Source of the DNA: Escherichia phage Henu5_1
Length of the DNA stretch: 44,212 bases
Direction: 5' to 3' (one strand)
Sequence record: PQ133007
The notes under the pieces are model-generated. The model saw only the letters and a list, made by a program, of their open reading frames with translations, searched no databases and had not been told where the DNA came from. The number at the start of each line of letters is the position of its first letter. Position 1 is the first letter of the stretch. The translations under genes and the position numbers were made by a program. Shown one piece after another: positions 4,707 through 32,304 of this stretch.

Positions 4707-4990
4707 TTCATGATGTGATTTATTGGTTTGGTTTGATCTGGGGACTGTGCCTGCTTACTGTGGTGCTGTTGTGCCTCCTGATGTTCGTCGTATGGCCCGC
4801 CGTGGAAGCCGCCAGCATTACCCGCATGACGTTCGAAATATACAAGCGCCGTGGAATCACGGAGCACCCGACCAGGTTGCGCATGTGGTGGCTGTGGTAT
4901 CGGGATATGATAGGCGGGCGAACATTCGAAGCCGTCCGATCATCCGGGTGGGAGTGGAAAGGCGTCGGCAAGTGGTCCGTTTTCGATTAA
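4703..4990 (+). CDS. Membrane protein (single predicted TM helix)
   Basis: Track ORF 4691-4990; ATG 4703 preferred because it overlaps upstream stop (ATGA); hydrophobic N-terminal segment. Confidence 0.5.
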   Translation: MIHDVIYWFGLIWGLCLLTVVLLCLLMFVVWPAVEAASITRMTFEIYKRRGITEHPTRLRMWWLWYRDMIGGRTFEAVRSSGWEWKGVGKWSVFD

Positions 4991-5008
4991 TTATGCAAGC
5001 GTGATATA

Positions 5009-5042
5009 GTCCCAGTGAGCTAAAACTTACTGGGACTTTTTT
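5009..5042 (+). terminator. Rho-independent terminator
   Basis: 9-bp stem AGTCCCAGT/ACTGGGACT followed by TTTTTT, directly after stop at 4990. Confidence 0.6.
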
Positions 5043-5333
5043 ATGGATAAGCTAAACGAGTGGCTATTCGCCCTGGCATGTCTGGCGGGTGGCTTCGTAG
5101 GCGCACGCATTCATGGTGAGGCTACGAAGGGGCCGCTAAACTTCGTTTTGTATGTGGTAGTCGGCTTCCTGTGTGCCATATTTGGCGCACCGGCTATTGC
5201 CGAGTGGGCTGGTTTGTCGGGTGAGCGCACTGTCGCCGGTTTGGGCTTCGTAACCGCAATCTTCTGGATGCCAATCGCCGACCGGATCAGGGAGACTATT
5301 GCGTCGTTCCGACTTCCGGGGGGTGCAAAATGA
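5043..5333 (+). CDS. Holin-like membrane protein
   Basis: 96 aa with 2-3 hydrophobic helices, immediately upstream of lysozyme gene. Confidence 0.5.
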   Translation: MDKLNEWLFALACLAGGFVGARIHGEATKGPLNFVLYVVVGFLCAIFGAPAIAEWAGLSGERTVAGLGFVTAIFWMPIADRIRETIASFRLPGGAK

Positions 5334-11462: not shown

Positions 11463-12549
11463 TCAATATATGGCGGATCGAATGATTCGCCGACACATTT
11501 TCACCCAGCGCCTGAGTAATGACCAGGCGCGAAGGGTGCTGTCCATGTGGGAGAAGTTCCGGCCTACATTACTGGGGAAGCTGACCGAGTTGCTTGATGG
11601 CAAATCGTCAATGAATAACCGGGCACTTTCCACCCTGCTAACGCAAATCGACAAGACCGTTAAAGCAGAATTGCGCACCGAGTTTAAGGCGTTGGCTGAA
11701 AGCCTTCAGGAGTTTGCCGACACCGAGGCCGATTATCTCGCCGACACATTAACGGCAGCGATCCAGCCGGCGGTCGCCGTACCTGCGGTCGAGGTGGTTG
11801 GCGTAGTGACCGGTGCGCAGATCGCAGCGACGGCTATGAAAAACCCGTTCCAGGGTAATACGATGATGCAATGGCCTGACTCACTTTCTGAGTGGACCAG
11901 GACGCAGATCGGTAATCAGGTGCGAGCGGGATTCATCCAGGGCAAGCCAACGATGGAAATTATCGCGGACGTGAGGCGCGCGCTAGGTGGTCGTAGTGCG
12001 CAAGCTATCTCGAGCGTTGTTAAGTCCGCAGTCAACCACTATGCGGCTACCGCCCGCGAACTAATGGTAAAAGCAAATGACGATATTCTCGAAGGTCGCC
12101 AATGGTTATCTACATTGGACACGCATACTTCTCCCATGTGCCAGCTACGCGATCGCCTGTTTTATCCGGTTGATGTTACTCCCGATACGAAAGGGAAGCG
12201 CGGCGGGAAAGTGGTGGCTGGATCACAATATGGCGCTGGTCCGGGCAAGTTGCATTATTGTTGCCGGTCTACGGAGACGTGGAAGGTTAAAGGCATGGAA
12301 GATTGGCCCAGTGGTAAGCGTCCGGCACTGAAGGCTGACGCGGGTCGATTGCTGAGTGAGCAGGTCGACGCGCAGACTGATTTCTTCTCATGGGTGCAGC
12401 GCCAGCCGCGCCATATCCTGGAAGAATTATACGGAGTGCAACGCGCCGACCAGATTATGCGCGGCGTGAAAGTGCCAAAGATGTTTACCGATTCTGGCGA
12501 ACTGATGACTATTGCGCAGCTTAAAAACCGGGGGTTATGGCGTGATTAA
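11446..12549 (+). CDS. Head morphogenesis / minor capsid protein (Mu gpF / SPP1 gp7-like)
   Basis: 367 aa, position after portal; assignment by gene order and general resemblance. Confidence 0.45.
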   Translation: MAKTINQYMADRMIRRHIFTQRLSNDQARRVLSMWEKFRPTLLGKLTELLDGKSSMNNRALSTLLTQIDKTVKAELRTEFKALAESLQEFADTEADYLADTLTAAIQPAVAVPAVEVVGVVTGAQIAATAMKNPFQGNTMMQWPDSLSEWTRTQIGNQVRAGFIQGKPTMEIIADVRRALGGRSAQAISSVVKSAVNHYAATARELMVKANDDILEGRQWLSTLDTHTSPMCQLRDRLFYPVDVTPDTKGKRGGKVVAGSQYGAGPGKLHYCCRSTETWKVKGMEDWPSGKRPALKADAGRLLSEQVDAQTDFFSWVQRQPRHILEELYGVQRADQIMRGVKVPKMFTDSGELMTIAQLKNRGLWRD

Positions 12550-12871
12550 ATATGCAGCGATTGGACTGGGTGTCGGTCTGGCGGTAGGATTCTGGCTAGG
12601 TGACTCATATCGCGCTGGCGTAGTGGCGGAGGCGGCGCAAAAAGCGCAAGCCCAAGCCCAACGGCAGCAAACTAAAGTTGTTGAGCGCTCCGTGCAGGCC
12701 GAACAGGCCCGCGACGTGGAATACCGGACTATCACGAAAGAGGTTGTAAAATATGTTACGCGCCCTAACCGCCCTGATTGTAGTTTTGATGCTGAGCGCG
12801 TGCGGATCAAGCAACGTGCCGTTGATGCCGCTAACGGAGTCGGCACTGCGACCGCCGTGCAAGTTCGATAA
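12542..12871 (+). CDS. i-spanin candidate (Rz-like)
   Basis: GTG 12542 with GGGGG RBS; N-terminal TM IKYAAIGLGVGLAVGFWLG followed by Q/A-rich coiled-coil-like segment. Confidence 0.45.
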   Translation: MIKYAAIGLGVGLAVGFWLGDSYRAGVVAEAAQKAQAQAQRQQTKVVERSVQAEQARDVEYRTITKEVVKYVTRPNRPDCSFDAERVRIKQRAVDAANGVGTATAVQVR

Positions 12872-12983
12872 CCCGTCTGCGGACCCCGACGAGGATTTGA
12901 TGATTGACGTGAAAAATATGGAATGCGGGGCGAAGCTAAGGGCGCAGGTGCTGGAGTTGCAGCAAATAATTAAGGGGCCGTAA
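12753..12983 (+). CDS. o-spanin candidate (Rz1-like lipoprotein), overlapping i-spanin gene out of frame
   Basis: Signal peptide with lipobox LSAC, proline-rich mature region; starts inside 12542-12871 in another frame. Confidence 0.5.
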   Translation: MLRALTALIVVLMLSACGSSNVPLMPLTESALRPPCKFDNPSADPDEDLMIDVKNMECGAKLRAQVLELQQIIKGP

Positions 12984-28615: not shown

Positions 28616-28918
28616 ATGGCTTTCGGTGTAGCAACATGGGACGCGCAAGGGCGACCAAACAACTACGGGATCAAGCCCGTTTCGGTTGTCGGAATTATTA
28701 AACTGACACAAGGTCAAACATCGGGGGCGTGGTCGTTCGATATTCCGTCGGGTATGAAAGTAGGTTTTGCGGTTACGCTGGACGCAGGCGGCACTACGGT
28801 CGGTAGGGCGATCCGTGCCAGCGGGAACACGATAACAGTATCTGCCGCAAACAGCGTCGGTATTGGAAACTACCCGGCGTCAGAATGTGAAGTAGTAGTT
28901 TTTGTGGAGAAAGCGTAA
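28616..28918 (+). CDS. Hypothetical tail-associated protein
   Basis: ATG 28616 with AGGGAGG RBS inside track ORF 28553-28918. Confidence 0.5.
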   Translation: MAFGVATWDAQGRPNNYGIKPVSVVGIIKLTQGQTSGAWSFDIPSGMKVGFAVTLDAGGTTVGRAIRASGNTITVSAANSVGIGNYPASECEVVVFVEKA

Positions 28919-28920
28919 AA

Positions 28921-29592
28921 ATGGCAAACTTCGGCGCGTTAATCGATAACAACAACGGCAACCCATTCGTCACGCCAAACTCAACGCCGTTCGTCCTCTA
29001 CGCTAAGGTGTCGGCAAATTCAGTGGACGCCGGTGCTGATTATAAAACAGCAAGCGGGGGCGTGGATATCCCCTCGAACTATCCGGCAATGGTTTTCATG
29101 CGGTCAAACAACCGTTGCGTCCTGGCGGCGTCACGATCAGGTAACCGGATTATATTTAGCGGAAGCATTCAGGGGCAGAATAACCCACATTTTACCGTCA
29201 CGGCGTACATATTCGCGCGATTCCCGCAACCGCTGCCGAAATGGGGCTTTGCGATTTGGGACGCCAGCGGGACGTGCATACTCACCAACGAGAGCAAGGT
29301 ACTCACTGATTTAGTCACAGTTGGCAGCTTCGGCAATAACGGCGGGATCAACATAGACCAGACGCTTCCGGGTAAGTACGCAGTATCACCTATGTTAATG
29401 GGCGCTACTCTGATTCAGATCTTTGTACAGGGGCAGCCGCAGATTATACAGATCACGGCGGGGGCCGGTGCTTACGACAACGGAAGCGGAACACGGATTA
29501 ACGCCGTGGCAACACAAGCGGGGTCTGGTAGCGTCGCGGGGTATCAAAACACTGGGGTTGCTTTGACCGCGATTAACGTGGACGGGATATGA
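28921..29592 (+). CDS. Hypothetical tail-associated protein
   Basis: 223 aa, GTGGAGA RBS, between J-like gene and fibre. Confidence 0.5.
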   Translation: MANFGALIDNNNGNPFVTPNSTPFVLYAKVSANSVDAGADYKTASGGVDIPSNYPAMVFMRSNNRCVLAASRSGNRIIFSGSIQGQNNPHFTVTAYIFARFPQPLPKWGFAIWDASGTCILTNESKVLTDLVTVGSFGNNGGINIDQTLPGKYAVSPMLMGATLIQIFVQGQPQIIQITAGAGAYDNGSGTRINAVATQAGSGSVAGYQNTGVALTAINVDGI

Positions 29593-29593
29593 A

Positions 29594-29611
29594 AAGCCCC
29601 TTTCGGGGCTT
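29594..29611. terminator. Bidirectional terminator hairpin
   Basis: AAGCCCC-TTTC-GGGGCTT between convergent genes; T-run on minus-strand side. Confidence 0.5.
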
Positions 29612-29828
29612 ATTTACAGGTTGTGCTTTTGAAGTGGTCAACCGACACATACTGGAAGTTGAAGGGGTATCCCGCCCGTAACATTTTATGACCGCTAACG
29701 TCTGCAACCCCAAACACAGGGACGGAATACTCCATACCACTATTCATGTATGTTGCGTCGCAGATTTTAGACGGCATGTCGGCACAACCAGCCAACAGAA
29801 CCGCACAAATCATAATTAAAGTTTTCAT
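29610..29828 (-). CDS. Small lipoprotein, superinfection-exclusion candidate (Cor/Llp-like by context)
   Basis: ATG at 29828 (GGAGA RBS); signal peptide MKTLIMICAVLLAGC with lipobox LAGC; 72 aa; opposite strand between receptor-binding tail genes. Confidence 0.55.
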   Translation of the reverse strand: MKTLIMICAVLLAGCADMPSKICDATYMNSGMEYSVPVFGVADVSGHKMLRAGYPFNFQYVSVDHFKSTTCK

Positions 29829-29858
29829 GGTATCATCTCCTATATTCGGTTGGGTTTT

Positions 29859-29887
29859 AGTATTGCACCGCTCAACCAAGAATGCAA
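29859..29887 (-). promoter_or_regulatory. Putative promoter (TTGCAT-17-AATACT) with ATTGGTTGCAT motif
   Basis: -35 formed by motif copy at 29882-29893 read on minus strand. Confidence 0.4.
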
Positions 29888-29908
29888 CCAATTCATGAGG
29901 ATTCAGCT

Positions 29909-31702
29909 ATGGCAGCGGGTACACTATCCGTAACGAATAACAGCAAGGCGGTAGTCGGTGTCGGCACGACGTTCACCGCGTTTAAAGCTGGCGACTTCTT
30001 AACGCTGGTGGTGGGGCAAGTCCCTTACACTGTTGCTATCGCGTCCGTCGAAAGCGACACCGCGCTTACGCTGGTGCTGCCGTTCGACGGCCCCACGGCA
30101 ACCGGCCTTGCCTGGGATGGCGTTAAGCGCGATACCATGTCACTGGCAACGATGGGCGTAACAGTACAGGCACAGAAAGCGTTGCGCTTGATGCTCGCGG
30201 ATGAAAACAACTGGCGTGCAATCTTCGGCGACGCTGAAGAGATCACCGTTACGCTGCCCAACGGGCAAGTTATGCAGGGTATGTCATGGGGCTACCTGTC
30301 GCAATTGATGAAGCAAATTGACCCCGTCGAGATGCGCAACCTGCAACAACAAGCCGCTGCATCTGAAGCCGCCGCGCAAGGATACCGGAGCGAGGCCGAA
30401 GGATTCAAGAATGAGACGGCTGGTATTCGCGACGCCACCAATCAGATTAAGGCGGATACGCTGGCGATCCACGACGCTACCGATGCGATCAAGACGCAAA
30501 CCAACCAGATTAAGACTGATACGCAGGCCATCAAGGACCAGACGAACCAGATCAAGACTGACACCGGCCTTATCCGCGACGAGGCCAATACGGCGAAGGC
30601 GGACGCGCAAGCGGCGCGCGACGCGGCGCGGGGATTTCGCGACGAGGCCGAACAATTCAAGAATGAGATCGACCCGTCGAAATTTTTGGTAAAGGGCAAC
30701 AACCTTAGCGATGTTACCGACCCCGCGGCAGCGCGTAGCCACTTAGGCATCGGGCCAGACGATTCCATTAACTTAGCGGGTCTGGTAACGGAAGGCGGCA
30801 TATCCGCAGGCCGTAACACATGGGATGGGTCTAACTGGGGCAGCAGCGCCATTACATCGGCGTTTGCTGTCATGTCCCCCGATGGGAATTCCCAGCCGGG
30901 AATATACGTGCGCCCAAGCAACGGCGCGCCGGGGTACGCCGGTATGTGGTTGTATGATGAGGGTCTAAATAAATGGGGCACAGCGTCGAGGATAGCGGGT
31001 CAGCGTCTTATCGCAGAAGGCTACCAAACCGGCTGGGATATACCAAATAACTACGGGGAAAGCGGCGTATGGCTGACAGGCGTCGGTAATAACGACGGCG
31101 GCTGGGTCCCGGCTATTTCTTGGCTATCCCAATCAAGCGGCGGTTATCCGATCCGGGCTACGTGGGGGCTAATCGCACAAGGCACGACGAACTGGCCCCG
31201 CGCAGTATTGCGTTGCCGAGGGGATGGCGAAAACTGGACAAACTTTGAATTTGTTGTAAACGCCTGTGATATTCAGGTCAGTGGTACATTTGGCGCGTAC
31301 ACGTTCCAGAAAGCGCCTACGTCCGACCGCGACTTAAAGCATGACATTAAGTACACGGAAGGGAAGGAAAGCTACGACCGGGTTATGCAGTGGCTGCCAA
31401 CAATGTTTAAGTATAAGGGGTCCGAAATCCAGCGCTACGGCCTTATCGCGCAGGATCTGGTTAAAATCGACCCACAATACGTGAAGATTATTCCCGGCGC
31501 GCTTAAAGACCCGGATCTGGTAGGTACGGAAGGATTCAACGCGGATGACGGCGACTACTACGACGATACACTGGCACTTGACGGTAATGTCATATTAACC
31601 GACATGGCATGTGCGATGGTGTTCATGGGGCGTAAGGTGGAAGATATGCAGAAAGAACTGGAGGAATTGAAAGCTGCCGTAGCTGCGCTGACTAAAGCGT
31701 GA
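29909..31702 (+). CDS. Tail fibre with C-terminal intramolecular chaperone (peptidase S74-like) domain
   Basis: C-terminal SDRDLKHDIKY...GLIAQDL signature of self-cleaving chaperone domain; central heptad-like repeats IKxDTxAIxDxTNQ; ATG 29909 with GAGGA RBS. Confidence 0.7.
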   Translation: MAAGTLSVTNNSKAVVGVGTTFTAFKAGDFLTLVVGQVPYTVAIASVESDTALTLVLPFDGPTATGLAWDGVKRDTMSLATMGVTVQAQKALRLMLADENNWRAIFGDAEEITVTLPNGQVMQGMSWGYLSQLMKQIDPVEMRNLQQQAAASEAAAQGYRSEAEGFKNETAGIRDATNQIKADTLAIHDATDAIKTQTNQIKTDTQAIKDQTNQIKTDTGLIRDEANTAKADAQAARDAARGFRDEAEQFKNEIDPSKFLVKGNNLSDVTDPAAARSHLGIGPDDSINLAGLVTEGGISAGRNTWDGSNWGSSAITSAFAVMSPDGNSQPGIYVRPSNGAPGYAGMWLYDEGLNKWGTASRIAGQRLIAEGYQTGWDIPNNYGESGVWLTGVGNNDGGWVPAISWLSQSSGGYPIRATWGLIAQGTTNWPRAVLRCRGDGENWTNFEFVVNACDIQVSGTFGAYTFQKAPTSDRDLKHDIKYTEGKESYDRVMQWLPTMFKYKGSEIQRYGLIAQDLVKIDPQYVKIIPGALKDPDLVGTEGFNADDGDYYDDTLALDGNVILTDMACAMVFMGRKVEDMQKELEELKAAVAALTKA

Positions 31703-31706
31703 TGCG

Positions 31707-31730
31707 AAGGGGCCGCACGGCCCCTTTTTT
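31707..31730 (+). terminator. Rho-independent terminator at the junction of the two arms
   Basis: GGGGCCG-CAC-GGCCCC followed by TTTTTT; overlaps stop of convergent minus gene. Confidence 0.6.
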
Positions 31731-32304
31731 AGTTTGAGTTTTCCCAGTCCATTTTGCGCCGAACCAGCGGGCTTTCGTAGTATTCCTTTCCTTCCACTTC
31801 CACTAATGGCCAATCGTTCACGATCACGTATGGCTCTGCTATATCCTCAATAACACCGTGCGCACTATGCTGCCCGAACGACACACCGACCCGGATAACA
31901 CCGGCAACTCGACGGGCTAGATACTCGCGGGCACAACGTGCTTCCACCAGTCCGCGACGGATGCCGCTGGTAGCTTTTACCTCGTATGTCCAGACGGCAT
32001 CAATCATATGTTCGCGGAAGTCAGGGCCGGACTTAACCTTGCGCTTGCCAACCATGATAATATCGCCGCGGTCGATAGTGTTAGCGCTAAACAGGCCGGT
32101 ACGCATTAGCAAACCTTGCGGGATACAGCTACGCCCGCCCGCCTGCCCTTCGAGGTACATGCCTGCAAACATTTCACCCAGCACACCGACGAGTCTGCTT
32201 TGCTTGCACGCGTCGGACTTTAAGCGCCACTGGTCAAACTCGATGCTTGCAATCATTGCCGCCAGGTGGAATTGTTTACCGGTTATTTCATATTCGCCGT
32301 ACAT
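31729..32304 (-). CDS. Hypothetical protein
   Basis: 191 aa, ATG 32304 with GAGGGA RBS. Confidence 0.6.
   Translation of the reverse strand: MYGEYEITGKQFHLAAMIASIEFDQWRLKSDACKQSRLVGVLGEMFAGMYLEGQAGGRSCIPQGLLMRTGLFSANTIDRGDIIMVGKRKVKSGPDFREHMIDAVWTYEVKATSGIRRGLVEARCAREYLARRVAGVIRVGVSFGQHSAHGVIEDIAEPYVIVNDWPLVEVEGKEYYESPLVRRKMDWENSN

Follow-up and report, generated by a model that had tools for sequence, protein, structure and literature searches.

The Cor proteins of the temperate phages phi80 and N15 are the classical lysogenic conversion proteins that inactivate FhuA (PMC11436027). In the periplasm, Llp of phage T5 engages the FhuA plug in a non-native conformation, which causes loops EL7 and EL8 to close inward on the site where the receptor-binding protein pb5 docks (PMC9586334). 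Cor proteins likely act like Llp, according to the authors of that study, and an AF3 model of a T1-like Cor has it bound to FhuA at the plug and on the periplasmic side, with EL7 and EL8 inward (PMC13164509). In small siphoviruses, the loci downstream of gpJ were described by Maffei et al. as bona fide receptor-binding-protein loci whose allele type agrees with the terminal receptor with zero exceptions (PMC8594841). The full three-gene cor cassette was found in the KanT1 study in 10 BASEL Drexlerviridae/Dhillonvirus phages, all of which use FhuA (PMC13164509). The phages bob and Envy have been cited as FhuA dependent, and JLBYU37, JLBYU60, and Teewinot need FhuA, loop 8 in particular (PMC10373560).

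The window considered here, the whole 44,212-nucleotide stretch of Escherichia phage Henu5_1 (PQ133007), is a Dhillonvirus genome. Its first 25 kb are 93-94% identical over 97-98% of their length to Dhillonviruses such as PC2, 011D5, SECphi4, and YD-2008.s, and gene order is unchanged in the annotated relative SSL-2009a, where cor is labelled 'Cor superinfection exclusion protein'. The cor gene of Henu5_1 is unremarkable: it is of a known type, sits in the cassette usual for it, and is annotated in many close relatives (features are collected in the table). Its product is very probably a superinfection-exclusion lipoprotein of the Cor family, in a Dhillonvirus, that would block FhuA in an Llp-like manner. 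The BASEL, KanT1, and T5 Llp papers already cover Cor proteins and their cassette as well as the FhuA link and the Llp-type mechanism, and the locus offers no new biology. What it allows is a confident in silico FhuA call for Henu5_1, which is of practical use in the design of phage cocktails and in annotation, given that cor was missed in at least two close GenBank relatives.

Features in and around the cor locus of Henu5_1 (positions in the 44,212-nucleotide window)
Feature	Coordinates	Strand	Basis or remark
Inner-membrane spanin-like ORF	12542-12871		Directly after head morphogenesis gene
Overlapping lipoprotein ORF	12753-12983		Begins MLRALTALIVVLMLSAC
J-like central tail tip, 1139 aa	25159..28578	+	FNIII-A_GpJ, Phage-tail_3, Phage_Tail_Tip
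100-aa protein, N15 gp22 homologue	28616..28918	+	PHROG 557, E 4.2e-32; first cassette gene after J
223-aa protein, N15 gp23 homologue	28921..29592	+	PHROG 425, E 4.2e-67; second cassette gene
GC-rich hairpin AAGCCCC-GAAA-GGGGCTT	29594..29611	.	Between convergent stops of 223-aa gene and cor
cor	29610..29828	-	72-aa prolipoprotein; PHROG 1119 and NF047972 matches, dN/dS
Signal peptide and lipobox of cor	29784..29828	-	MKTLIMICAVL-LAGC, read from sequence
Shine-Dalgarno of cor	29837..29840	-	GGAG, 8 nt 5' of ATG
Candidate sigma-70 promoter of cor	29859..29887	-	Conservation; absent from consensus-scan calls
Lateral tail fibre	29909..31702	+	C-terminal Peptidase_S74 chaperone domain; divergent from cor
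Strong hairpin terminator	31706-31727	U-tract on + strand only	GAAGGGGCCGCACGGCCCCTTT then TTTAGTTT

An original prediction had placed a 72-aa lipoprotein ORF of the Cor/Llp type here, antisense to the flanking tail genes between the J-like region and the fibre, and had taken it to point to a specific outer-membrane receptor. Its coordinates were exact and its LAGC lipobox is present, and the arrangement was confirmed, with two small genes separating J and cor. The Cor/Llp-type reading is supported by matches to PHROG 1119 and NF047972, by the cassette context, and by a predicted Llp-like fold. The receptor indicated by the bob-like cassette and the literature would be FhuA (PMC10373560, PMC8594841, PMC13164509).

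The cor ORF runs from the ATG at 29828 to the TAA at 29612-29610. A mechanical ORF list starts the frame at a TTG (29891; 93 aa), but the alignments of all homologues begin at the ATG, and the Shine-Dalgarno sequence is kept as GGAG, GGGG, or AGAG across seven Dhillonviruses. PHROG 1119, 'Cor superinfection exclusion protein', matched residues 1-72 (E 6.5e-28). With NF047972, an NCBIfam equivalog entitled 'phage exclusion lipoprotein Cor', residues 2-71 scored 60.9 bits, where the curated cut-off is 31. There were zero Pfam matches for the Cor lipoprotein or the two proteins upstream. With tblastn, cor was detected in 242 phage records, and protein identity was 100% for NHEP3, 82-96% for other Dhillonviruses, about 50-56% for T1-like phages, and about 40-44% for N15 and HK/mEp lambdoids. 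A single-sequence homology search with Cor recovered only six close relatives, and a profile search was therefore needed. It returned 215 proteins from phages and enterobacterial genomes (presumably prophages); for many of them NCBI and UniRef use the name 'phage exclusion lipoprotein Cor'.

The N-terminus of Cor, MKTLIMICAVLLAGC followed by ADMPSK, has one basic residue (Lys, in the n-region) and an 11-residue hydrophobic core, and ends in the lipobox L12-A13-G14-C15 (codons 29795-29784, with the Cys15 codon at 29786-29784). Judged by eye, this sequence fits the [LVI][ASTVI][GAS]C rule. The mature protein is 58 aa, counted from Cys15, and the residue at +2 is Ala, not Asp. In E. coli lipoproteins, Ala after the Cys directs sorting to the outer membrane, and outer-membrane sorting of Cor is predicted on that ground. 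L12, G14, and C15 were invariant in an alignment of 12 Cor sequences. Among 60 diverse members of the family, C15, C23, G53, and C71 were invariant, and G14, G31, G40, A52, Y54, P55, F56, V61, and F66 were at least 90% conserved; the AGYPF core motif and the Cys pair of the mature part (C23, C71) are both present in the Henu5_1 protein. Cys23 and Cys71 probably form a disulfide. One lipid-anchor Cys and one Cys pair agree with the account of van den Berg et al., in which Llp and Cor have an intramolecular disulfide in common (PMC9586334).

The AlphaFold2 model of Cor, made with the family alignment, had a mean pLDDT of 84.8 (block means of 92-94 over residues 21-70) and was a small all-beta domain with strands at residues 23-29, 32-44, 47-52, and 60-62. 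The top-ranked Foldseek match was 8a60_B, which is T5 Llp (PDB 8A60 chain B; also 7QJF), with TM scores of 0.54/0.61. The fold is the same as that of the Cor model in a match that is statistically weak (E 0.039). The same chain was the top match of the Cor profile against PDB sequences, but this link is statistically weak as well (E 0.009) and owes part of its score to the signal peptide, since the alignment spans residues 1-40 only, the signal peptide and first strand. T5 Llp differs from Cor in sequence, with an identity of only about 24% in structural alignments and no significant single-sequence similarity, and it falls outside the Cor HMM families. Considering the family scores against the structural match, the Henu5_1 protein is Cor by membership and Llp-like by predicted fold, but not Llp by sequence. 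The receptor-binding protein with which Llp is partnered in T5, pb5, has a size of about 640 aa; in Henu5_1, the ORF list, judged by gene size, held no large gene of this type between J and the fibre gene.

We infer the lipidation, localisation, FhuA target, periplasmic allosteric mechanism, and early expression of Cor. In the proposed sequence of events, cor would be transcribed alone soon after infection, against the direction of the late tail genes and from a promoter of the host type. The precursor would be exported, lipidated at Cys15, and cleaved by signal peptidase II, and Ala at +2 would direct it to the outer membrane, where it would sit in the inner leaflet. If T5 Llp is a guide, the mature beta-sheet domain may bind FhuA, a TonB-dependent transporter, at its plug and periplasmic face, and FhuA would then be locked in a state in which its extracellular loops refuse the phage receptor-binding protein. 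Inward folding of loop 8 would explain the exclusion of Henu5_1, because FhuA-dependent Dhillonviruses need that loop (PMC10373560). The infected cell and the debris left after lysis would cease to adsorb Henu5_1 and other FhuA-dependent phages, and infected cells are predicted to be refractory to phages such as T1, T5, and phi80. Even without a lysogeny module, Cor is likely to be of benefit in excluding competitors during the latent period and in sparing progeny from FhuA on debris; the second of these benefits has been stated for Sie proteins (PMC13164509, PMC9586334).

It is also conceivable, although unlikely, that Cor excludes FhuA phages indirectly, through or together with other outer-membrane proteins, rather than by jamming FhuA itself. 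The title of Arguijo-Hernandez et al. (2018) speaks of Cor acting through other outer-membrane proteins, and the sequence similarity between Cor and Llp is only about 20-24% (PMC9586334). However, the predicted fold of Cor is closest to that of FhuA-bound Llp, and Llp and FhuA alone were enough in vitro (PMC9586334).

The context of cor bears on the identity of the receptor. The gene points toward the two small genes downstream of J and away from the lateral tail fibre gene, and the order J, ~100 aa, ~225 aa, cor is common to T1, JLBYU41, N15, HK106, and Aeromonas phage pAEv1818. The 100-aa protein is 97.0% identical to that of bob, 74% to N15 gp22, 72% to the JLBYU37 protein, and 48.5% to the T1 protein. 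The corresponding values for the 223-aa protein are 96.9% (bob), 54% (N15 gp23), 54% (JLBYU37), and 47% (T1), and those for Cor are 94.4% (bob) and 85% (JLBYU37). Neither small upstream protein had a match in NCBIfam; the 223-aa protein is a candidate receptor-binding protein, a role taken from previous work (PMC8594841). With a cassette 94-97% identical to that of bob and a layout as in T1 and N15, the terminal receptor of Henu5_1 is predicted to be FhuA.

The Cor family is not strictly FhuA specific, because Cor-like proteins also occur in BtuB-using phages, namely, Markadamsvirinae and one Tempevirinae phage (PMC13164509). The Henu5_1 allele might on this precedent block another receptor, such as BtuB or a further TonB-dependent transporter. 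This seems very improbable: the BtuB-linked cases are without one or both of the upstream genes (PMC13164509), whereas Henu5_1 has the full three-gene cassette, and that cassette is nearly identical to the one in FhuA-dependent bob and homologous in all three genes to that of FhuA-dependent JLBYU37.

T1 and T1-like Drexlerviridae (JLBYU41, KanT1) use FhuA (PMC8594841, PMC10373560), as is predicted for Henu5_1. Their Cor proteins have the lipobox, the Cys pair, and AGYPF in common with the Henu5_1 protein, to which they are 49-56% identical, and they have the same cassette, in which cor is inverted and convergent with a hairpin between the stops. T1 differs in belonging to another genus and in having a recombination module after cor, where Henu5_1 has the lateral fibre gene 80 nt away. 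The Cor proteins of N15, phi80, HK022, and HK106, although only about 40-44% identical, belong to the same family by the curated NF047972 threshold, and in N15 and HK106 cor has the same position, after gp22- and gp23-like genes. These temperate phages carry cor in the same direction as the tail genes, and there it acts in the prophage state, whereas in Henu5_1 it is inverted. No integrase is annotated in the relative SSL-2009a, and Cor of Henu5_1 should therefore act in lytic growth. Inversion of cor relative to the tail genes was found in T1, in JLBYU41 (Hanrivervirus), and in all Dhillonviruses examined, and co-orientation in N15, HK106, pAEv1818, and Stx2 phage 86. In these phages, orientation tracks lifestyle, with three apparently virulent lineages inverted and four temperate or temperate-type phages co-oriented. 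This suggests that inversion uncouples exclusion from late tail expression.

The candidate promoter lies in the 80 nt that separate cor from the start of the fibre gene and consists of a -35 TTGCAT (29887-29882), a 17-nt spacer, and a -10 AATACT (29864-29859), with a TG (29868-29867) two bases upstream of the -10. The block is kept in seven FhuA-type and four other Dhillonviruses; the -35 is TTGCAA in most of the Dhillonviruses compared, and the -10 is AATACT in all except SECphi4 (GATACT). In T1, the corresponding position upstream of cor reads TTGCAA-17-TACAAT. A consensus scan did not call the candidate (3/6 and 4/6 matches), and its sole promoter-like match near cor (29836-29809) lies across the start codon and can be disregarded. 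The hairpin at the other end of cor was likewise uncalled as a terminator in the consensus scan, so promoter and terminator both rest on conservation and folding energy. On the cor strand, the hairpin has a folding energy of -13 kcal/mol (z -3.3), with UUUUC directly after it; on the plus strand, z is -2.0 and the tail, UAUUUAC, is poor in U. In Opt212, a compensatory change of G-C to T-A in the stem supports the structure. The original prediction had given the gene its own promoter and a bidirectional terminator. The promoter is plausible in view of its conservation, although the scan made no call. A terminator for cor itself is consistent with the stable hairpin and its UUUUC, but 'bidirectional' is generous because the plus-strand tail is U poor.

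The palindromic stem of the hairpin is kept (alignment columns 385-400) around a loop that reads GAAA in Henu5_1, SECphi4, and Opt212, whereas SECphi18, Sloth, SM_S22, and EE09 have the reverse complement, TTTC. The strong terminator at 31706-31727 lies between the fibre gene and a convergent minus-strand gene (31729-32304, PHROG 10558). Because this hairpin is without a U-tract on the minus strand, read-through is conceivable, and early-gene transcripts on that strand may continue into cor. The start of the fibre gene is likely at 29909 (MAAGTLSV...) and not at the ATG at 29882, since that ATG is missing in Sloth, Opt212, SM_S22, and EE09, a GAGGA Shine-Dalgarno sequence precedes 29909, and relatives are annotated with the equivalent fibre start. 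An ORF finder starts the fibre gene at the ATG at 29882, a sequence that on the other strand forms part of the -35 hexamer of cor.

A second type of lipoprotein occupies this slot in other Dhillonviruses. Oekolampad, TheodorHerzl, and many others match Henu5_1 in this region only from 29780 or 29815 to 29900, and the receptor of Oekolampad and TheodorHerzl is LptD (PMC8594841, PMC12685063). Their lipoproteins (Oekolampad bas18_0026, TheodorHerzl bas14_0026) have the same slot, strand, promoter region, and 5'UTR as cor, in the place where Rtp carries its exclusion protein Rtp45. The signal peptide in Oekolampad, StarDew, and WF5505 is the same as that of Cor (MKTLIMICAVLLSGCA); the 16 N-terminal residues of the Oekolampad lipoprotein are those of Cor except for Ala13/Ser, whereas the TheodorHerzl lipoprotein has only MKTLI in common with the Cor signal peptide. 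The mature domains of the LptD-type lipoproteins are unrelated to Cor, and these phages differ further in having a gene for a ~320-aa receptor-binding protein after the lipoprotein gene on the same strand. Since the sharing stops with the signal peptide and the mature lipoproteins are unrelated, one boundary of the exchangeable receptor module lies at this point. The balance of evidence leans toward a model in which promoter, 5'UTR, and signal peptide form a fixed 'expression socket' in Dhillonviruses, into which exclusion domains (Cor for FhuA, others for LptD) are swapped together with receptor-binding genes. The sharing of sequence at the socket was seen directly; recurrent recombination there, and its functional relevance, would follow from the model. 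If the model is correct, a receptor switch would amount to an exchange of the cassette, one breakpoint falling within the lipoprotein signal peptide or immediately behind it.

cor is a real gene of the Cor family under purifying selection. In the alignment of seven Dhillonviruses, read in the minus-strand frame, variable sites were distributed 16/10/37 over the three codon positions, and pairwise dN/dS was 0.06-0.23. The records of NHEP3 and SM_S22, which have small tail-strand ORFs annotated at this site and no cor, would suit a reading of cor as a chance ORF and of the small plus-strand ORFs as the true genes, but with third positions dominating the variation in the minus-strand frame, low dN/dS, full-length matches to both curated Cor models, and a lipobox and cysteines kept over 60 diverse sequences, that reading has a negligible probability and was discarded on the codon-position and dN/dS analysis. 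As the cor frame is a real gene, the plus-strand mini-ORFs are probably misannotations. The sites concerned are 4931-5248 in the stretch compared from NHEP3, whose unannotated cor is identical to that of Henu5_1, and 410-646 in that from SM_S22, whose unannotated cor is 82% identical.

Outer-membrane spanin subunits are likewise very small outer-membrane lipoproteins, but a role of the cor product as such a lysis protein is hardly credible and was discarded, because Henu5_1 has a separate spanin pair elsewhere in its genome and Cor matches Cor models and no spanin models. The equivalents of that pair are annotated in SSL-2009a as Rz-like spanins.

The Rz/Rz1-type pair provides the second lipoprotein gene of Henu5_1. 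In SSL-2009a, the distance from the spanin pair to the holin/endolysin genes is about 37 kb on the linear map and about 7 kb in the circular record. Several records named 'Campylobacter phage' with C. jejuni as host (A144, A16a, and A110b; MG065648.1, MG065636.1, and MG065688.1) also matched the cor region. A144 has about 90% nucleotide identity to the Henu5_1 region, and the cor homologues of A16a and A110b have 46-55% protein identity; these records look like mislabelled entries or contaminants.
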